From a virus: DNA of 64,000 nucleotides. How positions within the stretch are numbered: position 1 is the first letter of the stretch; every line of letters starts with the position of its first letter. A model generated the notes under the pieces. That model ran no database searches. It was not told the DNA's origin and was given only the letters and a program-made list of their open reading frames with translations. Location: positions 1 through 64,000 of IMG/VR virus record IMGVR_UViG_3300027763_000050, one strand, 5' to 3'. The position numbers were made by a program, and so were the translations under genes. This document shows positions 3,722-41,782 of this stretch, piece after piece.

Positions 3722-3952
3722 ATGGTCCGCTCCTTCTTCGCCCGCACGTATTGGCGGTTCGGTCAATACATGGGCAGTATTACCTGGGCCGCTTCCCCAG
3801 CTAATACTTCGCCAACAAAAGACTTCAGCGCCAAACGCCGCGCCCGCATTGATGAGCGCCAGAAGCGCCATGGCTTGCGAAATGCTTCGTGCAGTGGTAT
3901 AGTGCCCTTAAGACTACCGAGAAATTCTCGGAAGCTCAAGGGCACTCACTAG
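3722..3952 (+). CDS. Small basic hypothetical protein
   Basis: ATG ORF filling the gap after the tail fibre; no recognisable motif. Confidence 0.35.
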   Translation: MVRSFFARTYWRFGQYMGSITWAASPANTSPTKDFSAKRRARIDERQKRHGLRNASCSGIVPLRLPRNSRKLKGTH

Positions 3953-4318
3953 TCCCGCATACCAATCACATGACTGACCATCCAGTCACCCCGCCGCCTG
4001 AGCTTATGGAAAAAACTTTATTTACAGATCTTTTTAAAGCTCTTGGAGGAACTTTTCTGGAAGAAGATAGAGATTCAAATTTCCCTAACGAAAATACAAT
4101 AGATAAAGATCCTTACAAAAATCTGTGTCGGGAGCTTGTTGAGACCTGGGATGAGACTGTAAGGACACCGGGTAGTTTTGATTCACGGCGCATTGAGTTT
4201 TGTGCAAAAGCTGAACGTATTGTTTCTAATGCTCGTGCCCGCTTGGCTGGCTGTTGAATTTAGTAGTCCCGCACACTAATCACATGACTGATCATCCAAT
4301 CACCCCACCGCCTGAGCT
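3950..4318 (+). repeat. 55-bp direct repeat (3950-4004, 4264-4318; 50/55 identical) covering leader and first codons; third partial copy inverted at 28485-28530
   Basis: tagtcccgcaYacYaatcacatgactgaYcatccaRtcaccccRccgcctgagct read directly. Confidence 0.9.
3970..4257 (+). CDS. Hypothetical protein, MTDHPxTPPPEL paralog family
   Basis: N-terminus shared with 4284-4646 and 28244-28519. Confidence 0.7.
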   Translation: MTDHPVTPPPELMEKTLFTDLFKALGGTFLEEDRDSNFPNENTIDKDPYKNLCRELVETWDETVRTPGSFDSRRIEFCAKAERIVSNARARLAGC

Positions 4319-4646: not shown

Positions 4647-4878
4647 CCTATCACCCGCTGCTCAGGCAGTGCTGGATGCTGCTTACAAAGTCCGACCTTG
4701 GATGATCCGCGTAAATAGCGGATATATTGCTGCCGCCGCCCTTCGTGCTGCTGCGGATCAGGCACATCCAAAAGCTCACATTGAAGACATTAATTACGTT
4801 CATCAAAATTATGTTGACGGATGGAAAGATGCTCTTGATGTAATCCTCGCCATTGCCGACGAACTAAAGGCAGTATGA
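4639..4878 (+). CDS. Hypothetical protein, MTxLSPAAQxVLDAA family
   Basis: ATG overlaps upstream stop; N-terminus paralogous to 4916-5140. Confidence 0.75.
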   Translation: MTDLSPAAQAVLDAAYKVRPWMIRVNSGYIAAAALRAAADQAHPKAHIEDINYVHQNYVDGWKDALDVILAIADELKAV

Positions 4879-4915
4879 AGGAACAACTCGCCATCGACGA
4901 CGAACTGGAGGGACA

Positions 4916-5140
4916 ATGACTAAACTTTCCCCCGCCGCTCAATCAGTACTAGATGCTGCTATGCAACATTCAGGTCCAGCGTTTGAACCAGTGGCTTGCA
5001 AAATGGTTGCCTCCGCCATCCACGCTATTGACGAAGAACTTGCTTCTTGCCTTTTTGTTGGTCCCGATGAAGGCGACATTAAACGTGTGATTGATGTCAG
5101 TGATCTACATGACCTCATTGACGAACTGGAAGCCCAGTAG
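4916..5140 (+). CDS. Hypothetical protein, MTxLSPAAQxVLDAA family
   Basis: GGAGG RBS upstream; paralog of 4639-4878. Confidence 0.75.
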   Translation: MTKLSPAAQSVLDAAMQHSGPAFEPVACKMVASAIHAIDEELASCLFVGPDEGDIKRVIDVSDLHDLIDELEAQ

Positions 5141-5512
5141 TCTGAACCTCTTCTAAATTTAATGACTTAATTAAGAAGAGGCCCAGGCTTAATCTTTAGC
5201 GACCGTAGTAGTCGGTGCGGGTTTGACGGGTGTAGCCGCCGCCATAGATAGGGGTAGTTGTATAGGTTTCGGTACGGCTGGTCCCACCGCCCCTATTTTG
5301 GTACGTTGTGCTTCCGTCCCCACCGCGAGGGGAGTAAGTGGCGCCAGATCCGCCGATTCCATCGCAATAACGGTTATACCCAGTTCCGTGCGTTCTTCCT
5401 TGAACTGCCCCCAGGCCTGGGTAATGGTCGGAAGCTGGGTCACTGAAAAGCCGTACTCTGTCAGGAGGTTACACGCTACCTTGCAGATTGCAAACCCCAG
5501 CATGCAGAAAGA

Positions 5513-5770
5513 ATGGGTGCCGCTGACTATGACCCGGTCGACAGGCCTAGCCATTACGCGGAAGGCCGGGCAATCGAGGTTATTGACGTACTGGAAGACT
5601 GGGTGGCAAGGGCGCCAGACCCAGTAACCGGATCGCTTTTGTGGAATACCTGCAAGTACCTCGGCAGGCTGTTTGACAAAGGGCACCCACTGCGGGACGC
5701 CAAAAAATCTCGCTACTACCTCAATCGATTGATAAGCAGGCTCGAAAAGCTCGAGAAGGGGGATAGCTAA
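5513..5770 (+). CDS. DUF3310 / T7 gp1.7-like nucleotide kinase family protein
   Basis: DPVDRPSHY...IEVIDV...NTCKYLGR..KG..LRDAKKSRYYL signature. Confidence 0.8.
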   Translation: MGAADYDPVDRPSHYAEGRAIEVIDVLEDWVARAPDPVTGSLLWNTCKYLGRLFDKGHPLRDAKKSRYYLNRLISRLEKLEKGDS

Positions 5771-5989
5771 GTGGCCGATCCGCCAAGCGCTTCAGAATTA
5801 CTGGCAATGCTCTCAGCACGGGACTTCTTGATAACACTGTCCCAGCCAAGGTTAGTGCCGCGAATTCCCCGTGAAATGAGGGAGGAAATAAAAGCGATTG
5901 CCCGCCGCTACCCAACGTCAGATCGAGTCAAATCCTGGTTCCCCGATGTCTGGGTGCCGGATGGTAGGGATGCAAACAAAACTTCCTAG
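5771..5989 (+). CDS. Small protein, BPSL0761-like
   Basis: PRIPREMREEIKAIARRYP motif. Confidence 0.5.
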   Translation: MADPPSASELLAMLSARDFLITLSQPRLVPRIPREMREEIKAIARRYPTSDRVKSWFPDVWVPDGRDANKTS

Positions 5990-6058: not shown

Positions 6059-6676
6059 ATGTTTATTCTTGACGGCCGGTCACTGGCGCTTGACACGCCA
6101 TTTACTACGTGGGATGGGACTCAGTATCCAGCGAATTGGCTGAGGCTTGCTTCCCCGGAAGAGCGAAGCAATATTGGGATTTACGAAAGCATTGACCCCA
6201 TTCCCTACGACCAGGCTTTTTATTGGGGCTGGGATAATGACAACAAGTTAATACCTAAAGACCATGCGCAGTTGGTACAGCAATGGGTTGCCACGGTTAA
6301 GCAAACCGCCAACACCCTGCTCGCAGATACTGGCTGGTACATCGAGCGCCTGAACGATCCAAGCTCAGGGAAACCGGTTCCTCAGTCCGTCCTGGATCGT
6401 CGAGCAGAGATTCGCGACCTAAGCAATGCCAAGGAAGACGCCATCGTTGCCACCACCAGCACCGATGAACTGGCGGCCTATGTGCGGAGTTCGGATTTCA
6501 ACACATGGTCAGCTCCTTCTAATGACGCTCTTCCCGGGCTGGGTGGAATCACGGCGGCGGAGGGTATTACTGCGGCGGCCCCCTTGGCTGGCGCGGCCGG
6601 CCCTGACACCATCACGTTTTTCTCAGGCGGGTCAACCTCTTCCGGGGTCTCAACCGTTGACACCGTCCTGGGGTAG
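6059..6676 (+). CDS. Tail fibre-associated/assembly protein
   Basis: MFILDG..L..D.PF..DGTQYPANWLRL.S.EER..IGI N-terminus and LLADTGWYIER...RAEIR motif typical of cyanophage fibre-adjacent genes. Confidence 0.65.
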   Translation: MFILDGRSLALDTPFTTWDGTQYPANWLRLASPEERSNIGIYESIDPIPYDQAFYWGWDNDNKLIPKDHAQLVQQWVATVKQTANTLLADTGWYIERLNDPSSGKPVPQSVLDRRAEIRDLSNAKEDAIVATTSTDELAAYVRSSDFNTWSAPSNDALPGLGGITAAEGITAAAPLAGAAGPDTITFFSGGSTSSGVSTVDTVLG

Positions 6677-6719
6677 CCCTTACGGCTAGAGCCCAGTTGT
6701 AGCAAGGGTTCTGACTATG

Positions 6720-6763
6720 TGCGCTTTAGTTACATTCTCTAAAGAGAATGTAGACATAGCGCA
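6720..6763. other. Putative attP site of the serine integrase
   Basis: TGCGCT-ttagt-TACATTCTCT AA AGAGAATGTA-gacat-AGCGCA: 21-bp arms, 17/21 symmetric around central AA (6741-6742), 28 nt upstream of the integrase ATG. Confidence 0.7.
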
Positions 6764-6791
6764 GAATAGGTGGGGACTGAGTTTTGGGGCG

Positions 6792-8096
6792 ATGAGGCTA
6801 GGTTACGCGAGGTGCTCCACGGACGAGCAAGAGGGCGCCCTGCAAGCACAGATCCTGCGCCTGGAGCAGGCTGGATGCGACACGGTGATCTCTGAGCTCG
6901 TGTCTGGCCGGAAGAACGACCGGGAAGGGATCCTCGAGGCGGCCGCGCTGGTCAAGGCAGGCAAAGTCAAGGAGCTGGTAGTTACACGGGTAGACCGGCT
7001 GGGCAGGGACGCAGCTAACACCGATCTACTGCTGGCCTTATGCGCCGAGAAGCAGGTCGAGGTGTCTGCGCTGGATGGTGGCGTGATCGAGACCGCTAGT
7101 CCCCAGGGGTTTCTGATGGCAAGGCTGCATACCTCCCTGGCTGAGATGGAGAGCCGGATGCTGTCCATGAGAATCAAAAAGGCAATGGTCGTCCATAGAC
7201 AACAAGGGCGTCACCTTCGTCGGCGCAAACCATTTGGCTACATGGGCGGCCCAAATCATCAGTTAGTGCCAGACCCTAGTAATTGGGATCACGCCAAGAG
7301 AGTCCTACGGGAATTGAAAGAACGAGGAAGCTTTAGCAAAGTCAGCCAAACCTTGCCGGAATGGTGCCCGTGGACGCCAGCTACCAACTCCTTGCATTCC
7401 TGGTTCTGCAATCCAGTAATACGCGGACACCTTGGCCACCTAAGGGACGGCGGGCAGGGCTGGAAGAGCTACTACAAACAGATGCTGTATGACCAGCACG
7501 AACCGTTAATTTCAGAGACGGAGTGGCAAGCGCTTGCCGAAATCCTTAAAAGGGCTAGAAACAGGTTCCAGCCAAAGGATGACTCAAGAGTTGCCCATGC
7601 ATTGACGGGTGTGCTGAAGTGCGCAAATTGTGGTCACAATCTCAGGTACAACACATCAAACGGAACCGCTTGGTGGCGATGCCGTCATCGTCTATGTAAA
7701 GAAAGAGGAGGAATAAAGGAGGAAATTGCGCAGAATGTAGTTCTAGATGCCTGCATATTATCCGCAGATAACCTGGCCAAAATGATTGCAAACCCAGCCA
7801 AGGAAGACCCAGTGTTGGCCGCAAAACGTAAAGACCTGGCTGACCTGGAGGAACTTGCCAGGCGCTGGCCCGACGCCGTATCAACAGAGTCCCTGCGGCG
7901 TGAAATTGCGGATTTGGAAAGATGTGATAGATCGTCGATCGACCTTAAGCAGTTTAATATTTACCGAAGAATGATGAAGGATCCACAGTTTTATCGGGCT
8001 AGGCCAGACGAGTTGCATCCCGTGTTTCGCATGGTTTTACTCGAGGTACGAGTGGCGGCAGGTGGCGGCGCTGTAGCCGTGCCTCGTACCGTTTGA
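6792..8096 (+). CDS. Large serine recombinase (integrase)
   Basis: GYARCSTDEQ catalytic Ser motif, VTRVDRLGR, recombinase domain PFGY, zinc ribbon LTGVLKCANCG...WRC; start set at ATG 6792. Confidence 0.92.
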   Translation: MRLGYARCSTDEQEGALQAQILRLEQAGCDTVISELVSGRKNDREGILEAAALVKAGKVKELVVTRVDRLGRDAANTDLLLALCAEKQVEVSALDGGVIETASPQGFLMARLHTSLAEMESRMLSMRIKKAMVVHRQQGRHLRRRKPFGYMGGPNHQLVPDPSNWDHAKRVLRELKERGSFSKVSQTLPEWCPWTPATNSLHSWFCNPVIRGHLGHLRDGGQGWKSYYKQMLYDQHEPLISETEWQALAEILKRARNRFQPKDDSRVAHALTGVLKCANCGHNLRYNTSNGTAWWRCRHRLCKERGGIKEEIAQNVVLDACILSADNLAKMIANPAKEDPVLAAKRKDLADLEELARRWPDAVSTESLRREIADLERCDRSSIDLKQFNIYRRMMKDPQFYRARPDELHPVFRMVLLEVRVAAGGGAVAVPRTV

Positions 8097-8365: not shown

Positions 8366-8956
8366 ATGACTCCAGAGCACTGGGATCAGTACATGTATGG
8401 CCTTGTTGAGCTAACCCCCAAGACAGCCCGTAAGAAATTTAAGCAATCAATTAAAGATGCTTGGGGCGGTTGCGCGTACTGCGGCAGAACGCACGGCAGT
8501 TCCGGGGAAGAAATATCACTTACATTGGATCACGTCAGGCCTCGCTCCAAGGGCGGTAACTCCCTGAGATCCAATCTGGTTGCGGCATGCACACGCTGTA
8601 ACGTCAGCAAGGCTTCAGAAGAGTGGAAGGAATGGTACTCACGCCAACCCTTTTACTGTGCCGATAGGGAGCAGCGCATCACTACATGGCTCGAACCATG
8701 TAAGTGGAGCGATCCATATAAATTCTTCATGGATTTCAACGGAGGGTATTGTGGGCAAACGACTGACGATGGAGCAGGAATACCTGCTACGCCGTATTGC
8801 GCTGGAGGCTCAGGAGCTGACCCAGGAGGAGTTGATCAGCGCACTTTGCGATTCCTGGGCGGCACGGTTTCAGCAGAAATTTACCTTCATGAAAATGTCT
8901 CGCTCGGCGGGATACTCGTTCAAAATGCAGGAGAAAGCTCCATGCGGTGTGCCTAA
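8366..8956 (+). CDS. HNH endonuclease
   Basis: CAYCG...TLDHVRPRSKGG...NLVAACTRCNVSK; C-terminal third overlaps the next gene. Confidence 0.85.
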   Translation: MTPEHWDQYMYGLVELTPKTARKKFKQSIKDAWGGCAYCGRTHGSSGEEISLTLDHVRPRSKGGNSLRSNLVAACTRCNVSKASEEWKEWYSRQPFYCADREQRITTWLEPCKWSDPYKFFMDFNGGYCGQTTDDGAGIPATPYCAGGSGADPGGVDQRTLRFLGGTVSAEIYLHENVSLGGILVQNAGESSMRCA

Positions 8957-32256: not shown

Positions 32257-33067
32257 TGGAGGTTAATTTTTGAGTAATTTAGCAATTGCTTGGCAGACTG
32301 TCAATTCCTACTTGGGTTCAAGGTCGCAGCCATCGCCAATGGGCGAATAATGCTCAGTAAGGGCCAGGAGTTCCCAGTAAATCCAGTCTGCATCGTGGGG
32401 GGTGAGGCGCAGGCTGACAGACAATTTGCGTTCGGACATGAAAGGAAGAAAAAGAAAGGACAAAGAAATGCCGTTTCAGCAATTGATGAAACGACCAAGG
32501 AAAATGAAGGGCTTAGAAACCAGGGAGAGCCGGGCAGATGGCGCCAATGTGGCATTCAACGCCTGGAATATCGGAGACCATCTCTTTGGCGTACTCCCTG
32601 GCGTCGCGATCGGATGTGGCTTGTATCAGGACGACTTGCCTAGAGACAATCTCAACGGCAAATGTCTTAGAGGGAAAGAGCACGACTGGTTGCAACAACG
32701 GGCTGAGGATCGGGGTTAGGTCCTCGCCCCGCCAAGGCGCTGACAAAGGAGCACAAGGCAAGAGAGAGAAGGCAGAATATGAGGGGCAAGAAGTTCATTG
32801 GAGAAAGCAAGAAGTAAGAAAAGCTAAAGCGGAATCATTCCGGCTTAGGTGATAGCAGTGGCTGGACTGTGGAATTGGCCAAGGCAGTGGCGATGGTTTC
32901 AAGCCCCCTGCTGTCGTTCGTAGAAACGATGGCGTGAATGTAAAGACGAGTTTCGGGCGGCAAAAGGCTGAAGTCTTGGCGCAACATTTCACTGAGAGTT
33001 AAACCAATCGGCTGTAATGTCATGAGCAAAGGAAAGTAATTGGAGTTAACGGTGAAAGTGGTTGAAG

Positions 33068-33475
33068 TCAATCGTTGTCTGCAAGCTTTGTTGCAGCGAG
33101 CTGGCCCATGACGTATCGGTGAGCCGTGTAAGCGCTTATGGTTACTACTGCGCAATAGTCGTAACGATCGGCGACGGTATCCGATGCGCGGAAAAAGCAA
33201 ACGGTCCAGCCGCCGGTACTAATATCCATCGGTCCTAGATTTCTGTATAGCTCCGTCTCCGAAAGACTACGGATATAAGAAGCCAATGAATCGGCGTCCT
33301 TAAAGCCAAGCGGGTTAATTACCTGCAGAGTTTTGGCTACATAGATCAGGTCAGCTTGATCCCATTTGACACGGGGCCAGGGACCTTTGTCCGCTGCGGC
33401 GCGGGCATTAACTTCTGCTTGAGTGGCGGTCATTTGATTGATGAGTAAGAGTGCTGAAGGTATGGGGGAAGTCAA
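33068..33475 (-). CDS. Hypothetical protein
   Basis: Early-region packing; start uncertain. Confidence 0.6.
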   Translation of the reverse strand: MTSPIPSALLLINQMTATQAEVNARAAADKGPWPRVKWDQADLIYVAKTLQVINPLGFKDADSLASYIRSLSETELYRNLGPMDISTGGWTVCFFRASDTVADRYDYCAVVTISAYTAHRYVMGQLAATKLADND

Positions 33476-33720
33476 GGGAAGACAATCGCATCGGTTGCGC
33501 TGAGTTCATCTAAGGCAACTGTGTCGGCAATAATGTCGTGGATGCTGCCGCCCTGGTAATCACTGCTTTGATCCTCGCAAACCTCCAGCCCGGCAATCTC
33601 GATGTCAGAAATAGCTTGCTCAACGGAAAGCGAACTTGGCATGCGGACCCAGCAGTAACGACCGCTGGCGTCATTGCAAAGAAAGACATGAAAGGAAGCC
33701 ATGGATTTAGCGGCTGACAT
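33472..33720 (-). CDS. Hypothetical protein
   Basis: Early-region packing. Confidence 0.55.
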   Translation of the reverse strand: MSAAKSMASFHVFLCNDASGRYCWVRMPSSLSVEQAISDIEIAGLEVCEDQSSDYQGGSIHDIIADTVALDELSATDAIVFP

Positions 33721-34321
33721 AGTTGCTGGAAGAAAGGTTGGAATGGGCGTAGGTAAATAACCGATCACGTAAGGCTTTGTTTTGGACGTGTGGTAGAACA
33801 TTGACCCACTGTTCGCGGAACATGCTTCCACAATGGCGGCATCGAACAAGAGGTCTCAGTTCTTGCTGACCATCGGGCAATTCATGGTTTTTGATAAAGC
33901 AGAGTTCCCAATTGTGGTAGGCCTTGCCGTTCCAAAAAGCCTTAATATCGGCTCCAACGTCGGGAAGTTTGACGCCGTGATAGCAATTGACATTTAACAA
34001 AAGACCACTGCTTTCGTGGTGGAGTTGGATGGTGCCGGGCTCAACTTCATCGTCAGGTTCGTAGGACTTCCAGCGATCGTCTTCTTCTTCCCAGGGCAGG
34101 AGAGTGACCCTTTTGTCATGGGATTCGTAGGCGCCGGGGAGAATGTCGTCTTCTTCTGGCAGGGGCAGGCGCCAGTAAAGATTGCCTTCGGTTGCGGGGT
34201 TAAGGCTGCCGGGCAGGGGTGTTACTTTGTGGCGGTCATCCCAACGTAGGTAGTACATCGATTCGCAGGTGCCGATCTTGATTTCGACACCGTCAGATTT
34301 GCGTTTTGCGTATTCGCCCAT
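33707..34321 (-). CDS. Hypothetical protein with CxxC
   Basis: MGEYAKRKSDG..IKIGTCE.MYYLR family-like N-terminus. Confidence 0.7.
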   Translation of the reverse strand: MGEYAKRKSDGVEIKIGTCESMYYLRWDDRHKVTPLPGSLNPATEGNLYWRLPLPEEDDILPGAYESHDKRVTLLPWEEEDDRWKSYEPDDEVEPGTIQLHHESSGLLLNVNCYHGVKLPDVGADIKAFWNGKAYHNWELCFIKNHELPDGQQELRPLVRCRHCGSMFREQWVNVLPHVQNKALRDRLFTYAHSNLSSSNYVSR

Positions 34322-34380
34322 GGTGGTAGTCTGGTGAAGGGAGAGTAAGGGAATAGAAGATTAAGGAAAGTATTTCGGGA

Positions 34381-34962
34381 TCAAGCTGCTTGATTCTTTT
34401 CGAGCTGCGTGATACGCGCCTCAAAAGCTTCCATGCGTGCGGCAAGAGGATCAACGCGGTTGTGTGTGTATCGATCTATAACTCCGCCATGAAGAGAAAT
34501 GCCTCGTTCAACTCGATCGGCGATAGTCTTAATTGCCTGGTCGCTGCGGGCAAACTCAAACATGAGAGCTCTAAGCACGCCCGCATAATGTTCGCTTCTA
34601 TCTACTGTGGAATCAGGAAAGCCAGTGTCGCCGTAGTTGCCGGTAATTGCTTCGCGAATAAAGTCTCTAAGGGTGTCGATGAACTGGGAATTTTCGAACA
34701 GGCGCCAGGCAGATCGGGAAAAGAAATTTGCGCGTCTCTCCATGGCACCTGCCAGGTCTTCAATCAGATCAGGAAAAAGATCCAAGATGTGATTGGCAAG
34801 ATTCGAACACATGAGATTGCGGGATAACTGTGCAATCTCATCTTGAGAGAGCGGACGATGAAAGCCATGATCCCTGGCTGACTTAATCTCATCTTGGTAA
34901 GCAACAAGCAGCCGATCAAGTTGATAGAGATTGTGTGAAACGTTGACGTTGTCGGTAGTCAT
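34381..34962 (-). CDS. Hypothetical helical protein coupled to the E1 gene
   Basis: ATG 1 nt after the E1 stop. Confidence 0.65.
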   Translation of the reverse strand: MTTDNVNVSHNLYQLDRLLVAYQDEIKSARDHGFHRPLSQDEIAQLSRNLMCSNLANHILDLFPDLIEDLAGAMERRANFFSRSAWRLFENSQFIDTLRDFIREAITGNYGDTGFPDSTVDRSEHYAGVLRALMFEFARSDQAIKTIADRVERGISLHGGVIDRYTHNRVDPLAARMEAFEARITQLEKNQAA

Positions 34963-34963
34963 G

Positions 34964-35662
34964 TCAGGAAATAGCAAAGGAAAAGGAGCGGCCGTTGAAT
35001 CCCAGTTGGGAGTAGAGATTGTTGAGCTTGTTATCCAGGAAGTTTTGGACAACAAGCAGCGCGCTGGTAGCTGCCAGGGAATTGGCAGCAATTAACTGCG
35101 GGCGCGAAGGTGCGTGTTCCATGCAGCCGCCCGATCTCGGTATCGTGTCCCGAGGTGATGCAAGGTTTTCGCAGGTGAGGCGAGGGTCAATGCCAAAGGT
35201 GGTGTCATCGATCAGACCCCAGAACTGGACCTGACCCTTGATGTCTTCGGTGCCGTCGGAATTGCCGGGACTGATCCAGAGGAAGTTGCGGTTACTGCTG
35301 AGGCGCTCACCCATTACCTCCAGAGTTGCGGCCCGAGTGGCGTCGTTGTCTACGGCAAGAACAATCAAGGGCTGCTGAGCTTGCTGCAACAGACGCCGCA
35401 ACATATTCTTATCTAGGTATTCGGAGTAGGGCTGAGCGTTTAGACCTTGACTCTCAAGGTGCCGAGCCAGGGAGACCGCTTTATTGACGCCGATGTCAGC
35501 GGGGCCAACGATCTGGCGGGTAATGTTCTTGTTTTCGTAGGAGTCGCCGTCAATGATGGCAAACTGCGGCTCCTCGCAGGAATAGGTAAGCAACCGGGCC
35601 AGTGGTGCAGCGAGGTGACCGCCTGTGCCGCCAGCGCCAATCAATAGGCAAGTGTCAATCAT
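34964..35662 (-). CDS. ThiF/E1-like ubiquitin-activating enzyme
   Basis: IGAGGTGG, DGDSYENKNITRQ, NKA, AVDNDATR, candidate catalytic Cys in SGGCME, QLIAAN. Confidence 0.9.
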   Translation of the reverse strand: MIDTCLLIGAGGTGGHLAAPLARLLTYSCEEPQFAIIDGDSYENKNITRQIVGPADIGVNKAVSLARHLESQGLNAQPYSEYLDKNMLRRLLQQAQQPLIVLAVDNDATRAATLEVMGERLSSNRNFLWISPGNSDGTEDIKGQVQFWGLIDDTTFGIDPRLTCENLASPRDTIPRSGGCMEHAPSRPQLIAANSLAATSALLVVQNFLDNKLNNLYSQLGFNGRSFSFAIS

Positions 35663-36704
35663 TGGGGATCTGTCCGATAAGGGTGTTGCGGTGAATAAAC
35701 CATTGACGTAAAAGAGCATCTGCTTCGGTAATGAAGCCTTCGTTGTTGAACACCGTGGCCCGCTTGACATAGGCCGCAAGCATCCCGCTCTCACCCACGG
35801 TGCCTATGCCGGCAGTGCGTAGCTGACGGAAAGCGTCGCGATGAAGTTGCGGGTGAAGAAGTAGTAAGGCATCTGCGCCGCTGCGATACTCGAAGCTGGG
35901 GTCAGCGGGGACGGATGAAGAAAAAGAATTAATTTCGGAAGCGTTATCCCGGTATTGATCGAGAGAAAGTAAATCGTCGTTTGAAGGTGTGGCAGCAAAC
36001 GTACTTATTGCCTGATCAATTGACGTCGGGAAGTCAGAGCGTGTCCCCCAGCAGACGTAATCATTGTCAGCAAAGCAATTTAGATTTCGCTCCACGCCAG
36101 ACAAGCGAACTTCGCTGTCATCCGCTGAGCTGGTGACGCATTGTAAATATGAGCGTATGTTTGGTTTTCGTTCGCCATCCTCGGGCAATAAGGCTATAAA
36201 TTTATCAGGAAGGAAGACACTGGGCTTGAAATAAAACTCAAAGCAAGTAGGTGCAAGTTTATAGTCTTCGTCAGCATTGTCACTGGAATCGCCAACGTCA
36301 TAGCCTTCCGGGCATTGTTCATTGTAATAACTACTAAAGCCTTCCCGATAAGCGTCACAGCAAGAAGTAGTAGTAATGACGTAACTATTCCCATCGTGAT
36401 CCTGTCCATCATCTACGTGCTCATCAAACCAATAGCGACAACTGCGGCAATTTGAAGAAATAAAATTTTCCTCATCAAAACCCTGACCTAAATGTTGTGC
36501 ATCGGCCCAGCCATCAGGTAGCCAAACCCTGACGATTATGCCGTCATGTTGATGGCTGTAACCCACCAGGTCGGCGTTACTTGGCAGGTGTTCGAGATGT
36601 ACCGGAGGCGGCGCCGAGGGAGAGAGGAGTGATAAATTCAAAATCGTCGGATTCGGCGGCTGATGGATCGAATCCGGTGTGTTGCTCAATGTCGGCAAGG
36701 GCAT
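35655..36704 (-). CDS. Prokaryotic E2-like conjugating enzyme (Prok-E2 family D-like) with N-terminal Cys-rich acidic region
   Basis: LNCFADNDYVCWG...P.SI..A...F...PSNDDL matches the N.x(5-6).[IV]CWG...F..S.FN.DL E2 pattern. Confidence 0.7.
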   Translation of the reverse strand: MPLPTLSNTPDSIHQPPNPTILNLSLLSPSAPPPVHLEHLPSNADLVGYSHQHDGIIVRVWLPDGWADAQHLGQGFDEENFISSNCRSCRYWFDEHVDDGQDHDGNSYVITTTSCCDAYREGFSSYYNEQCPEGYDVGDSSDNADEDYKLAPTCFEFYFKPSVFLPDKFIALLPEDGERKPNIRSYLQCVTSSADDSEVRLSGVERNLNCFADNDYVCWGTRSDFPTSIDQAISTFAATPSNDDLLSLDQYRDNASEINSFSSSVPADPSFEYRSGADALLLLHPQLHRDAFRQLRTAGIGTVGESGMLAAYVKRATVFNNEGFITEADALLRQWFIHRNTLIGQIPND

Positions 36705-37659
36705 AGGAAAGCTCGGAGTAGAGATCGCGGAGGGAGTCGTGGTCGCCAGCAGCGGTGAGGTATTGAATGGCGTTAGTAACGTCGTCGATGATGTCGGACA
36801 CTTGCTGGTATGAACTTTTTTGACGCGGCATGTATGGACTCCAATTGCCGCCAAGGTCATTGCCCCAGCCGTCATCCCAGGAGTAGGGGTCCGAAATGCT
36901 GCCGTAGTGGAAATTGGCGCGCTGATCCTTGGCCTCTGTGCCGGACTTGCCAGATGTGATTACGGGCTTGAACAGCGGCCAGACGCCGATCGTTATGGCA
37001 GTCAGTACGTTGGGATGAAATGTGACGCCGTTTACTGGTGTTGTATCAACGACAAGGTTGTGGTCAATGGCGAAGCGCCGTTTGCCCGCTGTAATGGAAG
37101 CAGTAAGTGCGTATGACATTTTCTGGGAGTCGATGCTGCCAACAACAATGTGCAGGCCTGGATCGCCGAGCTCGTATTTGTCATCGGTGCCAGAGAAGAA
37201 AGCCGCCATGGTGTTGTGGCTGTGGGATGAGCCGCAAGGAGTCCAACCATCGGGCGGGTAGCTGGTAACTGTCTCGCCGGTGATGATGTCAATGGCTTTA
37301 TCGAAGCTCTCGACGCGGACACTGGCTGCATCAACTTCTTGAACGGGTACAAGCAGACGGAAGCAAGTGGGATCGCTTTCGCTGCGAAGAATGCGAACAG
37401 AGACCTCGGCCTGACTTGGGACCTTGGTGACGTAATGGAAGGTGAGCTGAATCCAAGCAGCCCAGAGATCGGCTGGAATTCGGGCAATGTTATTGGCGGG
37501 TTCAAACTTCTTGAGGTTCTCATCGGTGATGATTGCGTTGGCGGTAGGGTCATCGACGGGGCTGAGGTATGAGCCCCAGGAGTTAGCGGCAACTTTCCAG
37601 CAGCCACTGCGGTGAGTGCGAAGAACGCTGGGGGAACTGGGTGCGGTGGCTGAAGTCAT
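36577..37659 (-). CDS. JAB/MPN+ metallopeptidase
   Basis: AEV (catalytic E), VPVQEV, GSSHSHNTMAAFFSGTDD = HxH-x7-S-x2-D JAMM motif, GLHIVVG. Confidence 0.9.
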   Translation of the reverse strand: MTSATAPSSPSVLRTHRSGCWKVAANSWGSYLSPVDDPTANAIITDENLKKFEPANNIARIPADLWAAWIQLTFHYVTKVPSQAEVSVRILRSESDPTCFRLLVPVQEVDAASVRVESFDKAIDIITGETVTSYPPDGWTPCGSSHSHNTMAAFFSGTDDKYELGDPGLHIVVGSIDSQKMSYALTASITAGKRRFAIDHNLVVDTTPVNGVTFHPNVLTAITIGVWPLFKPVITSGKSGTEAKDQRANFHYGSISDPYSWDDGWGNDLGGNWSPYMPRQKSSYQQVSDIIDDVTNAIQYLTAAGDHDSLRDLYSELSYALADIEQHTGFDPSAAESDDFEFITPLSLGAASGTSRTPAK

Positions 37660-37709
37660 TGGGATAGAGGAGGAAGTAAGCCCCAGCGGGAGGCCGGGGC
37701 TGGTGACGA

Positions 37710-38237
37710 TCAACCCTTGGCTTCGCTGGTGACTGAAGCGCGGACGATGGTGCCAGGGGCGACAACGGACGAGGGCACCAGGATTTGCCCCTCGGCAACG
37801 AAGCGTGCGCGATTAACGTCAATACCGAGCTCGCCTTCGTAGAGGGAGAAGAGTTCATGGAGGCTTTTGCCGTCAGCGATTGCGGCGGGGACTTCGACAA
37901 GTGCGCCGTCGTTTGCGGTTAGTACAACGGGGGGCTTGGCTGCAGCTGAAAGATTTTCAAAGAAGCTTCCAGATGTGGGGTTGTTATTGGCAGCTTTTGG
38001 TTCGGAGGTAGTGCCGGCGTCGGGCTCGGTGTATGAAGCGTGGCCAACGGTTATAGATTCATAGAAGGTTGCGCCGGCAGTGGCTTCTTCGGTGACGGCA
38101 ACCTTGGAGCCGTTGTCTGCGCTTACTGCGACTGGACTTTCGGCGGGAGTTTCAGGGGGTAAAACAAACTCAAGGGTGGTGACAAGGAACTTGTAAGCGG
38201 ACTTGTAAGCGGATTTAAGAGCGGAAAAGGGAGACAT
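37710..38237 (-). CDS. Ubiquitin-like (beta-grasp) protein with N-terminal extension, ending ...SEAKG
   Basis: C-terminal ~75 aa with beta-beta-alpha-beta-beta-beta pattern and terminal Gly, first gene of the JAB-E2-E1 run. Confidence 0.75.
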   Translation of the reverse strand: MSPFSALKSAYKSAYKFLVTTLEFVLPPETPAESPVAVSADNGSKVAVTEEATAGATFYESITVGHASYTEPDAGTTSEPKAANNNPTSGSFFENLSAAAKPPVVLTANDGALVEVPAAIADGKSLHELFSLYEGELGIDVNRARFVAEGQILVPSSVVAPGTIVRASVTSEAKG

Positions 38238-38315
38238 AAGAAAGCTTTAGTGGGTCGGGAGGGCGAAGGCAGCATCAAGGGCCAGGCTGCGATTGGCCGA
38301 TCTACAGGAGCTATG

Positions 38316-38933
38316 TCAGTCGAACTGGGGCTCGAGGAATAGCGAGCGGCGAATGGAATTGATTGCAATTTCAAGGTCATTGCGATCGGGGCCGATTGAC
38401 TGCGAGATAACAGGACGGGCAGTTTGAGCGCGTAAAAATTGCGGATCGTCTAGCCCCGCAGTAAAGAGACGGAAAAAGGAAGTCTTATCTCCCTTGGTTG
38501 TTTGAAGTTTGATAATGCGCTCGGAAAGATTGTCAACAACAAGAAGCGCGCCGAGTAGGGTACGGGCGGGCTGGGTGTTAACTGGTCCGGCTGGTTTATT
38601 GGATTGGGCTGCTACACGAAGCAGGTAAGGAGTGGTTGGATCCGCTTGGTGTAAGCGCAATTCGAGGTAATCTCTGGGGCCGTACTCAGAGGCAGCTCCC
38701 CGTTTAATAAGTTGCAAGTCAAAGGGAGCGCCAATAATTGCCGTAATTATTCGATCGGGGTCAGGTCCAGAGGCAGCAGGCGGAGAGTCTCCGTATGAGT
38801 AAAGATCGCCGCCGAAAGAGAGGCCTATAACAACCGGTTTCGGCAAGACAGTCGCAGGGCGAATACCGGAATTGGGATCAACGTCTGGATCAATAAGCAG
38901 CTCAACAGGATCAAGTGGCGCGAGAGTTGTCAT
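38316..38933 (-). CDS. Hypothetical protein
   Basis: ATG ORF upstream of the Ubl gene. Confidence 0.65.
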   Translation of the reverse strand: MTTLAPLDPVELLIDPDVDPNSGIRPATVLPKPVVIGLSFGGDLYSYGDSPPAASGPDPDRIITAIIGAPFDLQLIKRGAASEYGPRDYLELRLHQADPTTPYLLRVAAQSNKPAGPVNTQPARTLLGALLVVDNLSERIIKLQTTKGDKTSFFRLFTAGLDDPQFLRAQTARPVISQSIGPDRNDLEIAINSIRRSLFLEPQFD

Positions 38934-39159
38934 GGTTAACAAAGGAAACAGCACGGTTGAAAGACCCATCAGAGACGAATCGTTGAGCCCCTCGGCGAAG
39001 ATGGGCGCGGATATTACGAATGGAGCGAGTGGAAATACGCCTGCCAAAAGGAATGATCCCTTTGGTGCTAGTAATAGTGTGAGTAAGGCGCCAGTGTTTG
39101 GAGCCAGCGGTTATGTCGTAGCCGAGGGAGCGGGCTTCTTTGATGAGGTCAGCGGACAT
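38911..39159 (-). CDS. HicA-like small basic protein
   Basis: LIKEARSLGY...GSKHWRLTH......IP......R..RNI. Confidence 0.6.
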   Translation of the reverse strand: MSADLIKEARSLGYDITAGSKHWRLTHTITSTKGIIPFGRRISTRSIRNIRAHLRRGAQRFVSDGSFNRAVSFVNHDNSRAT

Positions 39160-39162
39160 TAG

Positions 39163-39717
39163 TTAGATACGGATAGATTTCTCCTCTTCCTCGGAAAGCT
39201 CAAAGCCGCGGGCCTTGATGAATGGGATAAGTGCAGTAACTGTGAGTTTCTGAACTTCCATCGAGCGTGGTTTCTCGATGCAACCAACTAACTTGCTGGT
39301 GTAGTTGTAGGCGCGGCAGACTTGCTCGATGAGTCCAGCCAATGTGGGATCGAGCAGAGGTCCGGTTTGGATGCGAGGGGAGGCGGGTTTGGCGAGGGTT
39401 TGGGAAGTGGCGGTAATGGCAGTGATAGGGTCTGGATCTTTCCAGCCGTCTTCGCTAGCAGGGATTGAAGGGTGGTCAGTTCCTTCCTCGTAATCCACCG
39501 CGAGGAACGAGCCCCCGAGGTCAGGATCGAAGCAGATTTGGTCTTCGTTGAATTGGTAGCCAGCGCGGAGGTCGGGGGCACTGGCGCGATGGATGAAGAC
39601 AGTGGGTTCGCCGCCCTTGCGAGTTTTGATGGACCTCTCGATGTTGTTGTAGTAGGCGTAGAAGAACTCGCTGTTACGGGCTGAGTGGCGAGGGTCGGAA
39701 GTGAGGACGAGTGCCAT
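39163..39717 (-). CDS. Hypothetical protein
   Basis: ATG ORF, early-region packing. Confidence 0.65.
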   Translation of the reverse strand: MALVLTSDPRHSARNSEFFYAYYNNIERSIKTRKGGEPTVFIHRASAPDLRAGYQFNEDQICFDPDLGGSFLAVDYEEGTDHPSIPASEDGWKDPDPITAITATSQTLAKPASPRIQTGPLLDPTLAGLIEQVCRAYNYTSKLVGCIEKPRSMEVQKLTVTALIPFIKARGFELSEEEEKSIRI

Positions 39718-39916
39718 GGCTGGATCAGGAAGTGAGTCGTTAGGTAGTTCTTTAGTGCGAGGAATTGTGTTTCCTCGAGGAGAAGTGCCGACCCGATCGA
39801 AGAAATCAACGAAGGCGGATCGGCTAATTGCTGCTGAAGGTAGAGCTTGGCCTTGGGGGAATTCGGAGTAAGAAGCAGGCGGCGCTTGCTGGGTGCAAGA
39901 GAGAGCCAGAAGTCAG

Positions 39917-40528
39917 CTATTTGATTGACCAATTACGGCGTTTAACAAGTTCAGCTCCGGGGACTGTGGTGCCGGCTTTGATTGCAGCTTTGATTGCGGT
40001 CTTGTCTGGGGCGTATTTGATCGTCTCCCGCAACAGGTCATTGGGGATCAAGCCCTCGTCAACAACATCGACGGCCTCGCTGACCCGTGATACAAGCTCA
40101 TGGGTGGGGAAGGAGAAGCGGGTGTTGTCGGGGTTGAGTTTGAGAAGGATGTCGATCAGGTAGGTCTGAAGTTTTTCGGCGCGGCGTTGATCGGCTTTAG
40201 CGAGGGCGGCAAGACGGTCGGCCTCCTTGGCGCGGAAGTCAGCCTTGCCGTGAAGTGCGTCGATTACATGGCAGACCTGATCGGCCTTGGTTGTTAGGGC
40301 CGACCTGGCGGATTCATCGAGGGCGAGGAAGTGCTCAACCAGTCCCCGGGCTGTGTCCTGCTGTTCGGGGTCGTCGGAGTCAAGGAGTTCAGCGGCAAGG
40401 GCTAGCTCACCGCTTACCTCTTGGACTTGGATTGCGAGGTTGAACAGGGTCGGGGAAGAGCTCGAAGTGGTGGAGAGTTCCGTCTGGGCAGATGGGAGGC
40501 GGGTTGCCGTTGGCGAAGTTGTGGACAT
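39917..40528 (-). CDS. Siphovirus Gp157-family protein
   Basis: KAD......I..L.......EA.RL......RAE.L..YL...PDKTAIKAAIKAG..VPGAEL. Confidence 0.85.
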   Translation of the reverse strand: MSTTSPTATRLPSAQTELSTTSSSSPTLFNLAIQVQEVSGELALAAELLDSDDPEQQDTARGLVEHFLALDESARSALTTKADQVCHVIDALHGKADFRAKEADRLAALAKADQRRAEKLQTYLIDILLKLNPDNTRFSFPTHELVSRVSEAVDVVDEGLIPNDLLRETIKYAPDKTAIKAAIKAGTTVPGAELVKRRNWSIK

Positions 40529-40761
40529 ACGTGTTGAGTGATTGAGGGCTGTCAAAGGCGATTGACCAAATGAAGTCAGGCTTTTCGCAGTGGACCAGCA
40601 GGTAATCGGGCGTGACTGCGGTGAGGGTGTAGCGGCCAACAACCGTGTCGGCGGGAAACGGTGCTAGCGCTGCCTTAAACCAGGCGACTAGGCGGAGGGC
40701 GAGGGGAAACCACATGAATGGCGCAAGCTGGAGCAAGCAGAGTATGGCAGCGAATAGCGTG

Positions 40762-40800
40762 AAAGGAAAGCCCCAGCATGCGGCTGCACACCAGGGCTTC
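40762..40800 (-). terminator. Putative intrinsic terminator
   Basis: AAGCCC/GGGCTT stem, U-rich tail on the minus strand. Confidence 0.5.
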
Positions 40801-40811
40801 AGGGATGGGTG

Positions 40812-41177
40812 TTATGCGACGGGGATAGCGAGCTTGGCTTCCTCTGCGGCACGGAGACCGGCGGCAGTGGCGTCCTTCTCGACCTTGGCCATCAGCGCTG
40901 CGGTGTAGACCTGCTTGGCGGAGATGGCGTGGACGGCGTTGCCCTGTTTGACGAGCTTGCCGAAATAGAGAGTGCCGGTGTTAGGGCACTCAAATGTGTC
41001 GGCGGGGTTATCAGCGCCAAGGGATGCAATGGCATGCTCGGATTTGAAGCCGGCACGAACAGCGGTTTCCCTGCGGGCAAGACCACCCTCGTCACGGGAT
41101 ACATATGCGAGCTCAACAGATGACCAATTGTCACCAGCGAATGCACGAAAACGGAGAGGACCAAGAGATAGATTCAT
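40812..41177 (-). CDS. Hypothetical protein
   Basis: Preceded by a degenerate copy of the early repeat element. Confidence 0.65.
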   Translation of the reverse strand: MNLSLGPLRFRAFAGDNWSSVELAYVSRDEGGLARRETAVRAGFKSEHAIASLGADNPADTFECPNTGTLYFGKLVKQGNAVHAISAKQVYTAALMAKVEKDATAAGLRAAEEAKLAIPVA

Positions 41178-41266
41178 GTGATGCGCTGCCGTGAGTAAGG
41201 AAATTGCACGGTTGAAAAGGCGCAAATAAAAAATCCCTAGACTGGGCAAAGAGAGTTCACAAATTT

Positions 41267-41782
41267 ATGCTCGGCCAAAACAAATCAGGGCTGTCTGGCT
41301 TAGATCAGCGCATTGCAAAAGAAGCGGCAACCCGGGCCGATGCATATGGGCAAGCTGGCCGTGCTGCCAGATTGGAAGAACTAAAAGGACGCGACAACGA
41401 AAGCCTTGCCGCCCAACTGCGTGGTGCATTGCAGAACAAGGGTGACAGTTACCGTACGCAGGTCATGCTTGGCGGCGACGGTGATGTGCCCATGGACGCA
41501 ATGACAGGCAGGAACGGGCTAGATCAGGCCGAGTTAGTGAAATTCCTAGCTGGCCTTGCTCCCGCTGAGCGTCAAGACCTTTTAGCCCGGATGTCAGGTC
41601 AGCAGACTGGTGTGCTGGAAGGTATCAATCGGATGCTGGCTGGTGATAATCAAGTTGGCAAGATCAGCCGGGGCGCTGCGATAGGCGGCATTGGTGTTGG
41701 CACTGGGCTTGGTTTGACTGCTGCCGGCAAGGGATTGATTGACTTGATGGAATATTTACAGGAAGGCCAAGGGGCGCAATAA
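41267..41782 (+). CDS. Gly/Ala-rich putative virion protein
   Basis: TAGACT box; glycine-zipper C-terminus like the 49-55 kb block. Confidence 0.65.
   Translation: MLGQNKSGLSGLDQRIAKEAATRADAYGQAGRAARLEELKGRDNESLAAQLRGALQNKGDSYRTQVMLGGDGDVPMDAMTGRNGLDQAELVKFLAGLAPAERQDLLARMSGQQTGVLEGINRMLAGDNQVGKISRGAAIGGIGVGTGLGLTAAGKGLIDLMEYLQEGQGAQ

Follow-up and report, generated by a model that had tools for sequence, protein, structure and literature searches.

Five coupled genes in the early region

The window, i.e. the whole stretch of DNA that we analysed, comprises the first 64,000 nucleotides of IMG/VR virus record IMGVR_UViG_3300027763_000050, an uncultured phage with a total length of 78,367 bp. 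Five coupled and tightly packed genes lie on the minus strand of its early region (34381-38237), in the order Ubl (ubiquitin-like protein), JAB, E2-like, E1 and a fifth, predicted helical protein. An earlier note, made from the sequence alone, had described the first four as a ubiquitin-like conjugation operon. The four ORFs that it had located between 34964 and 38237 are indeed present and in this order, but the operon was drawn one gene too short, as the coupled gene at 34381-34962 had been overlooked. Gp157/Gam-like and primase-helicase genes share the minus-strand block with the cassette. A promoter/terminator scan of 33000-41500 returned sites no more frequent than in shuffled sequence.

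The Ubl gene (37710-38237, minus strand) encodes 175 aa and ends as noted before in ...SVTSEAKG with the stop directly after; Gly175 (codon 37713-37715, adjoining the stop) is the last residue. A predicted amphipathic helix (residues 1-25) and a low-complexity linker (~26-99) precede a conserved domain of beta-grasp size (~100-175), and the C-terminal 75 aa are nearly invariant across four close relatives. The C-termini of 14 phage homologues read SE[SANQ]KG followed by 0-2 residues (none, F, S, IN, RH, LG or VY), with K124, R143, R166, S171, E172, K174 and G175 invariant. The family thus has the conserved C-terminal Gly, exposed or with a short tail, of a Ubl modifier, and a conserved Gly with a short variable tail has also been reported for the Ubls of Bil (PMC10557695). 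An ESM Atlas model of residues 98-175 matched ThiS, ubiquitin and SUMO clusters (TM 0.63-0.79). Pfam gave weak matches for two of the 14 relatives, one to ThiS (0.006) and one to Ub-Mut7C (0.004), and the Ubl profile had no match among PDB sequences. The AF2 model, built from five near-identical sequences, was too poor to use (pLDDT 44). A search for Ubl candidates among shorter proteins gave none. Together, the C-terminal Gly with its variable tails and the model matches lend moderate support to a ubiquitin-like protein, possibly with a beta-grasp fold.

The JAB gene (36577-37659, minus strand, 360 aa) carries the motif claimed earlier, GSSHSHNTMAAFFSGTDD, which is an intact HxH-x7-S-xx-D. 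The ORF itself, given before as 36577-37713, is real, but its start is probably ATG 37659, which is colinear with relatives, rather than the alternative TTG 37713. An N-terminal domain with conserved Arg14 and Trp28 precedes the catalytic core, in which Glu85, His146-Ser-His148, Ser156 and Asp159 make up the E...HxH-x7-S-xx-D motif; the C-terminal half is variable. All 19 sequences compared share Glu85 and HSH, and those without an interruption also retain S..DD. The protein shares 49% identity over 223 aa with its homologue at locus L005. Pfam Prok-JAB (PF14464) scored just below threshold (23.1 bits vs cut-off 25, E 7e-5) and NCBIfam PRTRC_A far under its cut-off (26.2 vs 101.8 bits, E 5e-6). 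From motif and conservation we firmly predict a JAB/JAMM metallopeptidase. In three relatives group I introns interrupt the gene just after HSH (in L025 after HSHNTMG), suggesting that JAB is important for the phage, because introns in an active-site region are a mark of important phage genes. Separately, the Vibrio phages D69, D181 and D148 encode a distant JAB alone, with no E2-like or E1 partner.

The E2-like gene (35655-36641, minus strand) starts, as had been proposed, within the 3' end of JAB: TTG 36641, colinear with the family N-termini, gives 328 aa and an overlap of 65 nt, and ATG 36704, also a possible start, gives 349 aa and an overlap of 128 nt. From either start the ORF holds NCFADNDYVCWG with the candidate catalytic Cys reported earlier. 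Residues are numbered here in the modelled 303-aa version from GTG 36566. The core comprises Asn163, Cys172-Trp173 (Cys172 codon 36051-36053) and Asn196-x-Asp198-Leu199; the protein further has an insert with four Cys (C40, C43, C70 and C85) and, at ~230-303, an additional C-terminal domain rich in beta structure. None of Asn163, Cys172 and Trp173 varies across 58 representatives and 21 locus-derived sequences, down to ~20% identity, so that the invariant Cys has an upstream Asn of the HPN type; the HPN His is absent.

The E2-like model is confident, and its top structural matches are nearly all E2/UEV/RWD proteins, mostly UBC folds, at low Z; the structures of BubB and CdnG-E2 are among the weak fold matches. 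Foldseek of the model against PDB and BFVD found no significant match, and the only matches of the family profile among PDB sequences, which were ankyrin-like, were rejected as spurious. The earlier guess of a Prok-E2_D domain stands in part. In hhalign the family aligned with a true Prok-E2_D member over 58 columns (Prob 77%, E 2e-5), with the invariant Asn and Cys aligned, but the Pfam Prok-E2_D cut-off is not reached: PF14460 had no match to the protein itself, which lies under every Pfam threshold, and gave weak matches in four of the 58 relatives (best E 0.009). The family, which is named in no database, would therefore be a distant relative of Prok-E2_D and no member by the Pfam rule. 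Assignment of the product as an E2 is moderately supported by sequence and model. Alternatively, it might be a zinc-binding adaptor or a substrate, with E1 transferring Ubl directly or to a non-protein target. We consider this extremely unlikely, since the three residues are invariant in both sets of sequences and their alignment matches the Cys that Prok-E2_D conserves, and dead E2 folds typically lack the catalytic Cys (PMC1779556).

The stop of the E2-like gene and the start of the E1 gene (34964-35662, minus strand, 232 aa) overlap in ATGATTGA, with the E1 ATG within the overlap; this overlap, read earlier as translational coupling, is real, as are the E1 motifs GAGGTGG, IDGDSYENKNITRQ and SGGC. 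Pfam ThiF (PF00899) passed its cut-off with 44.1 against 28.1 bits (E 1.8e-11). NCBIfam PRTRC_ThiF reached E 1e-12 at 47.9 bits, under its cut-off of 144.75, with ThiS adenylyltransferase as the second-best NCBIfam match. PADLOC models of the CBASS 'E1-E2' protein (Cap2) matched the Rossmann core at up to 9e-11, and the PDB sequence matches were MccB, a ThiF-type protein and Uba4. The superfamily motifs are present: G9/G11/G12/G14 (GxGxxG), the Arg finger NxxRQ, the Mg-binding Asp of DNDxxR and a crossover-loop Cys, Cys180 (codon 35123-35125), the candidate catalytic residue. All full-length relatives conserve GxGGxG, D38, D40, N46, R49, Q50, K61, D105, R110 and C180. The Pfam score and these residues firmly argue for a ThiF-type E1 adenylyltransferase, predicted as a single 232-aa adenylation domain without a ubiquitin-fold domain or a separate Cys domain. 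Canonical E1s recruit their E2s through such domains, so their absence counts against a conjugation cascade. Bacillus phages also have ThiF genes, with identities below 33%.

Such a minimal ThiF/MoeB-type E1, with its ThiS adenylyltransferase match, would also fit a sulfur-carrier system, in which E1 makes a Ubl thiocarboxylate (compare ThiS, MoaD and CysO) for a phage-specific thiolation, JAB acts like Mec+/QbsD and the Cys protein is a sulfur relay. The single terminal Gly of Ubl and the ThiS clusters among its best look-alikes agree with this, and E2-less sets of JAB, Ubl and E1 are known from sulfur pathways (PMC1779556). However, the earlier remark that sulfur-pathway genes are absent nearby holds among the neighbour genes scanned, where we found no rhodanese, cysteine desulfurase, ThiG/MoaE-type acceptor or sulfur-assimilation gene, nor are there such genes among those conserved with the cassette. 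The Cys protein, moreover, aligns with Prok-E2_D at the Asn...Cys core, has UBC folds listed among its matches and is invariably linked to E1. We thus regard a sulfur-carrier role as very unlikely.

The fifth gene (34381-34962, minus strand) starts 1 nt past the E1 stop and encodes a predicted helical protein of 193 aa with the N-terminal motif VNVSHNLYQLDRLLVAY. In most related loci, E1 is followed by a gene whose product shares this N-terminal motif. Two groups of these relatives are linked by hhalign (E 1.6e-6); the product of 34381-34962 matched the two groups weakly (E 0.0036 and 0.013), jackhmmer gave no link to its positional equivalents and family searches returned no match. Homology to the positional equivalents is suggested by these alignments, and the gene belongs to the cassette.

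Related loci in other phages

Two queries, a sub-alignment of 10 sequences and a pair of JAB sequences, retrieved the related loci. The synteny that the earlier note had wished to see surveyed extends well beyond this phage: ~20 other phage contigs, with a GC content of 35-65% and protein identities of 27-59%, have the order Ubl-JAB-E2-E1, and all catalytic residues are invariant across these loci. That the genes and their order recur, and that the named residues do not vary, shows that the four-gene arrangement is not due to chance. Single-protein scans of IMG/VR (with E2-like, E1 and the metagenome proteins P0014 and P0016) gave no matches. The carriers are T4-like cyanophages, jumbo phages and this non-T4 78-kb phage, and include complete 258-284-kb T4-like cyanophages that carry psbA.

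No copy was found in 50,697 GenBank phage records. INPHARED holds no cultured phage with the cassette, which is therefore at present accessible only by gene synthesis. A scan of 185,579 prokaryote species, represented by one genome each, found no copy with two peptide patterns, a search that distant cellular copies could escape. The cassette seems confined to phage genomes, and no description of it was found in the literature searched.

The same biochemistry could serve defence, with the phage carrying a system for immunity or superinfection exclusion in which proteins of competitor phages are tagged, comparable to the action of Bil on a phage tail protein. Temperate phages often carry defence genes, and the 78-kb phage encodes a serine recombinase/integrase; it may thus be temperate, which would also suit a defence role. 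In addition, the characterised bacterial Ubl-E1-E2-JAB operons (CBASS Cap2/3 and Bil) are all anti-phage (PMC10557695, PMC11601596). However, the cassette lies within an early/replication block rather than a lysogeny-expressed locus, it was not found in the prokaryote genomes scanned, although defence genes carried by prophages should show up there, and PADLOC had no match to it besides the E1 domain. It is also found in complete T4-like phage genomes of 258-370 kb, and T4-like phages are typically lytic. Overall, we consider a defence role unlikely.

Proposed chemistry and role

We consider it likely, judging from sequence and models, that the cassette encodes a phage-borne, thioester-type ubiquitin-like conjugation cascade in one early operon. 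From the genes, their order and coupling, the family and fold assignments and the invariance of residues across divergent phages, all of which we observed, we infer the chemical steps as follows. Ubl would be produced with its terminal Gly, and the one or two extra residues of relatives would be trimmed by the JAB zinc peptidase. E1, probably a homodimer like ThiF and MoeB, would bind ATP-Mg via GxGGxG, Arg49 and Asp105 and adenylate Gly175 of Ubl, which would then be held as a thioester on the crossover-loop Cys180. Ubl would next be handed to Cys172 of the E2-like protein, with Asn163, nine residues upstream, acting as the Asn of the E2 'HPN' motif, and be moved to an amino group of the target. 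The choice of target might fall to two parts of the E2-like protein, its four-Cys insert and its extra C-terminal domain, and to the helical product of the fifth gene. JAB may also remove the tag.

Such a conjugation cascade would most likely serve the infection cycle of the phage itself, either through the modification of proteins of host or phage in the course of takeover or by blunting host defence. Its location among early and replication genes and its apparent confinement to phages make this role likelier than that of a cell's defence island. We tentatively extend this to a shared pathway, although we would not yet favour it: unrelated lineages of tailed phages may have a virus-specific Ubl conjugation that tags host proteins in takeover or counter-defence, with the zinc and C-terminal modules of E2 and the fifth protein selecting targets in place of an E3. 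Targets would be, for example, defence, DNA-repair or photosynthesis-related host proteins.

To our knowledge, prokaryotic Ubl conjugation has so far been shown in cells only and always against phages, in CBASS Cap2/3, Bil and probably Bub. Here, a full predicted set of Ubl enzymes lies on the phage side of the conflict. Many uncultured phages, among them the ecologically important T4-like cyanophages, have conserved it in their early regions. If active, the cassette would mean that phages themselves write ubiquitin-like marks, and would offer a compact five-protein model for a minimal E1-E2 relay and a handle on the plasmid PRTRC and Prok-E2_D cassettes. If true, a pathway shared between lineages would represent the first case, among prokaryotes and their viruses, of a virus-encoded system that writes Ubl marks.

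Comparison with known systems

Bil (BilABCD, types I and II; PMC10557695) resembles the cassette in having a Ubl, an E2, a JAB DUB and an E1, all four predicted in the phage, and its chemistry proceeds through Cys thioesters (PMC10557695). The order is Ubl-E2-DUB-E1 in Bil and Ubl-JAB-E2-E1 in the phage; BilD is a multidomain E1 (an inactive IAD, an AAD and a mobile Cys domain), whereas the phage E1 is a single 232-aa domain; and Bil is bacterial and lies in defence islands, whereas we found the cassette in phage genomes only. No sequence-level match to Bil was found, and we rejected membership because gene order and E1 domain architecture differ. Type II CBASS shares an E1 core, which matches the Cap2 models, and a JAB peptidase partner. 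Cap2, however, is an E2-E1 fusion that conjugates the CD-NTase, whereas the phage has separate E2-like and E1 genes and a dedicated Ubl; for these reasons, and because only the Rossmann core matches Cap2, CBASS membership was also rejected. In Bub (formerly 6E), the oxyesters form on Tyr and Ser and the protease is a DUF6527 protein (PMC11601596), in contrast to the invariant Cys at both catalytic positions in the phage, which speaks against membership; DUF6527 had no match among the neighbour genes scanned. A Ubl/JAB pair for tail assembly, like TAPI/gpK of lambda, was rejected in view of the early-region location and the presence of E1 and E2.

The nearest known systems are PRTRC and the predicted plasmid cassettes of Prok-E2_D, JAB and ThiF. 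PRTRC (ParB-related, ThiF-related cassette; TIGR03734-03742) supplies the best NCBIfam matches of E1 and JAB, PRTRC_ThiF and PRTRC_A. Membership was rejected as these scores lie far under the cut-offs, PRTRC_B, C, D, E and F had no match among the cassette proteins, 58 E2-like relatives, four Ubls and four fifth-gene proteins, and ParB_N had no match in the 78-kb genome, with control genomes positive. No functional study of PRTRC was found in the literature searched.

The plasmid cassettes, reportedly predicted by Iyer, Burroughs and Aravind, are exemplified by WP_179070542-44 on plasmid pC052_E of Nostoc sp. C052, and conjugative plasmids that carry them gave the best E1 matches in PLSDB (~33% identity). 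As in the phage, JAB adjoins a small ThiF-type E1, the cassette adjoins replication genes of a mobile element, and the E2 core N...ICxG...NxDL aligns with the phage E2-like protein. They differ in their order (E2-JAB-E1 vs Ubl-JAB-E2-E1), in an E2 of 240 aa that lacks the four-Cys insert and the extra C-terminal domain, and in a JAB of ~200 rather than 360 aa; no dedicated Gly-ending Ubl was seen at three JAB-carrying plasmid loci. The parts list of the phage cassette fits operon type 6d (Iyer et al. 2006, PMC1779556), which may correspond to PRTRC or to type I Bil. This type combines a small Ubl whose C-terminal Gly is conserved, a JAB with Arg and Trp conserved in its N-terminal domain, and an E2-like protein in which the Cys is conserved and the HPN His is missing, together with an E1 and a helical protein.

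Gene content and genomic setting of the cassette

The earlier note had read four contiguous minus-strand genes as a complete ubiquitin-like conjugation operon in the order Ubl-JAB-E2-E1. All four open reading frames are present where it had placed them, and each motif that it quoted occurs in the sequence: the Ubl candidate (37710-38237) ends in ...SVTSEAKG followed by the stop, the JAB frame (36577-37659) contains GSSHSHNTMAAFFSGTDD, the E2-like frame (35655-36641) contains NCFADNDYVCWG, and the E1 frame (34964-35662) carries GAGGTGG, IDGDSYENKNITRQ and SGGC. The proposed coupling of the last two genes also holds, the stop of the E2-like gene overlapping the E1 start (ATGATTGA). The most likely start of JAB is ATG 37659, because its relatives begin a few residues before a conserved Arg-Thr downstream of this codon. 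As had been proposed, the E2-like gene begins inside the 3' end of JAB, which is supported by colinearity with the N-termini of its family: a start at TTG 36641 gives MNLSLLSPSAPPPVHLEHLP, colinear with, for example, MSNPFSPSRPPRLHVEPLP. The ATG at 36704 favored in the earlier note is a possible alternative. A fifth gene (34381-34962), whose product is predicted to be helical, starts one base past the E1 stop. Two genes downstream of E1, a 204-aa protein (33707-34321, minus strand) has a CxxC zinc-finger-like C-terminus and weak matches to NMD3 and HVO_2901; no counterpart was found in the related loci.

The full IMG/VR record comprises 78,367 bp (CheckV completeness 91%), of which the window is bases 1-64000. 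The window encodes a large terminase subunit, virion proteins, an endolysin, a primase-helicase, a Gp157/Gam-like protein and a large serine recombinase/integrase (6717-8096, plus strand; PHROG 95, E 1.7e-49), and from the last of these we consider that the phage may be temperate. We looked for a T4-type capsid gene and for ParB in the window phage and found neither. The cassette forms part of an extended minus-strand stretch in which early and replication genes are grouped. A cyanobacterial host is faintly suggested by a weak, sub-threshold NblA match (8763-8849, plus strand; 18.9 bits, cut-off 25).

Conserved signatures of the core proteins

Neither the E2-like protein nor the Ubl matched any entry in Pfam, NCBIfam, PHROGs or PADLOC. 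For the E2-like protein, 56 relatives of 300-400 aa emerged when 1.84 billion representatives were searched exhaustively with HMMER, and all ten of those checked were metagenome proteins without a name. In the 303-aa version starting at GTG 36566, Asn163, Cys172, Trp173, Asn196 and Asp198 are invariant in the alignment, the first three being conserved throughout the cassette loci, and four further cysteines (40, 43, 70 and 85) are nearly invariant; the insert that carries these four is probably zinc-binding. The family alignment yielded a confident AlphaFold model (pLDDT 89), with which Foldseek found nothing in the PDB. As independent support, the family profile aligned with a protein of a Nostoc conjugative plasmid (probability 77%, E 2e-5) that is itself a bona fide Prok-E2_D member (Pfam E 1.6e-45), such that Asn163, Cys172 and Asn196-x-Asp198-Leu199 fall on the N...ICYGG...FNKDL of the plasmid protein, and 4 of 58 relatives gave weak Prok-E2_D matches. 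We therefore read the E2-like protein as a putative, very divergent Prok-E2_D-type E2. The invariance of Asn...Cys-Trp would be difficult to explain in a protein that had the E2 fold but no catalytic role. The protein also bears an extra beta-rich C-terminal domain. GC-rich relatives have a conserved C-terminal tail, PC(S/T)SPxPSSSxLAAxAAS (1380-1472 in locus L003, 600-696 in locus L004, and many in the alignment of relatives), which overlaps with the 5' end of E1 and is absent from the window copy.

For the Ubl, our own structure model, built from five near-identical sequences, was unusable; an ESM Atlas model of residues 98-175 superposes on ThiS, ubiquitin and SUMO clusters with TM scores of 0.63-0.79, and two of 14 locus-derived relatives match Pfam ThiS or Ub-Mut7C marginally. 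The strongest argument for the assignment comes from comparing C-termini: in every homologue S-E-x-K-G either closes the chain or precedes a tail of one or two unconserved residues (F, S, IN, RH, LG or VY). A conserved Gly with a short unconserved tail has also been described for Bil Ubls (PMC10557695), and such an ending implies that the C-terminus is processed and the Gly carboxylate used. Lys124, Arg143, Arg166, Ser171, Glu172, Lys174 and Gly175 are kept across loci. Most homologues have 86-95 aa, and the window lineage is about 90 aa longer at the N-terminus; this extension (37941-38237, minus strand) consists of a predicted amphipathic helix, which contains the duplication KSAYKSAYK, and a low-complexity linker. 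The leader motif MSFFDQIRT, with which the short relatives begin, occurs twice in the window protein, at residues 1-10 and 91-100.

The E1 passes the Pfam ThiF threshold (44 bits against 28); its top NCBIfam match is PRTRC_ThiF, far under the cut-off of that model, and its Rossmann core matches the PADLOC Cap2 'E1-E2' models. GxGGxG, Asp38/40, Asn46, Arg49, Gln50, Lys61, Asp105, Arg110 and Cys180 are conserved throughout the loci. JAB scores slightly below the Prok-JAB threshold, with PRTRC_A as its top NCBIfam match, and keeps Glu85 and His146/148 across loci.

Distribution among phages

We compared 24 loci, four from a pattern scan of metagenomes with the E2-like sub-alignment and 20 from an IMG/VR scan with the JAB pair; their proteins share 27-59% identity with those of the window, and their G+C content ranges from 35% to 65%. 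The order Ubl-JAB-E2-E1 was found in 18 of them. The loci without Ubl are L002-L004 and L015 (at contig end) and L024-L025 (Ubl not detected). One 370-kb phage with terminal repeats (L023) has the variant order Ubl-Ubl-E2-JAB-E1; its two Ubl paralogues (2157-2639 and 3787-4113) both end in MSHEQKG and have Asn-rich N-terminal extensions. Most loci have, downstream of E1, a gene with the N-terminal motif VNVNDxLVxxDNLLxA; the relatives of this post-E1 gene form two groups linked at E 1.6e-6, the window copy being linked only at 0.004-0.013.

Two carrier genomes, of 258 kb and 284 kb, are complete and have a T4-type capsid gene and psbA, which identifies them as T4-like cyanophages, and two further carriers have the capsid gene. 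Because these carriers are T4-like but the window phage is without this gene, the cassette crosses phage lineages. In several AT-rich T4-like relatives, homing endonuclease genes (HNH and repeat-containing GIY-YIG-like) are inserted between cassette genes (L020, 4233-4784; L017, 9000-9809; L019, 4952 and 8940). Group I introns (Rfam RF00028, 59-83 bits) interrupt JAB in L021 and L022 (both 6405-6645) and L025 (7254-7527), three phage contigs of two very divergent lineages, with the insertion shortly 3' of the HSH zinc-ligand motif and directly so in two of them (in L025, after HSHNTMG).

The JAB patterns gave no match in 185,579 prokaryote species, each represented by one genome, and the E2-like protein none in 50,697 GenBank phage records. 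In the same phage records, JAB had only distant matches, in the cultured Vibrio phages D69, D181 and D148 (29% identity; 4794-5864 in the D69 locus L026, OZ195729.1), without E1 or E2-like partners, and E1 only a few other ThiF genes at <33% identity. A 263-aa protein adjoining the D69 homologue ends in ...TGTKGINYSK. The nearest plasmid E1s, on cyanobacterial and other plasmids, some conjugative, adjoin JAB genes (once also a Prok-E2_D gene) near replication genes. It is possible that the same chemistry serves defence or exclusion, as would suit a phage that is perhaps temperate; the occurrence in T4-like genomes, the early-gene context and the absence from the cellular genomes scanned all speak against such a role.

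Predicted pathway and relation to known systems

The simplest reading of the cassette is a thioester relay. JAB would trim the Ubl where a tail exists, E1 would adenylate Gly175 and load the Ubl onto Cys180, and the Ubl would then be handed on to the E2-like protein, at Cys172, and from there to a target amine, a modification that JAB could reverse. Beyond the parts list and its conservation, which the loci display directly, we infer each chemical step from the named families. Candidates for target choice are the add-on modules of the E2 and the fifth protein. A minimal E1 with a ThiS-like modifier would also fit a sulfur-carrier role, against which stand the invariable linkage to an E2-type protein and the lack of a sulfur-transfer partner among the genes scanned.

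The earlier note's overall reading is correct, and the feature is real and conserved: judged by its sequences, the cassette is a new, phage-restricted variant within the known prokaryotic Ubl-E1-E2-JAB class. It is not CBASS-like, because the E2-like protein and E1 are unfused and a dedicated Ubl is present, nor Bub-like, because the catalytic positions hold Cys instead of Tyr and Ser. With Bil it shares the parts list and the Ubl tail pattern; we rejected membership since the defining gene order and E1 architecture of Bil are absent. Nearest in sequence are PRTRC and the plasmid Prok-E2_D/JAB/ThiF cassettes, both themselves predicted systems; PRTRC membership was rejected, as every curated threshold was missed and ParB and PRTRC proteins B-F are absent. 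The parts list of the phage cassette agrees with that described for operon type 6d (PMC1779556).
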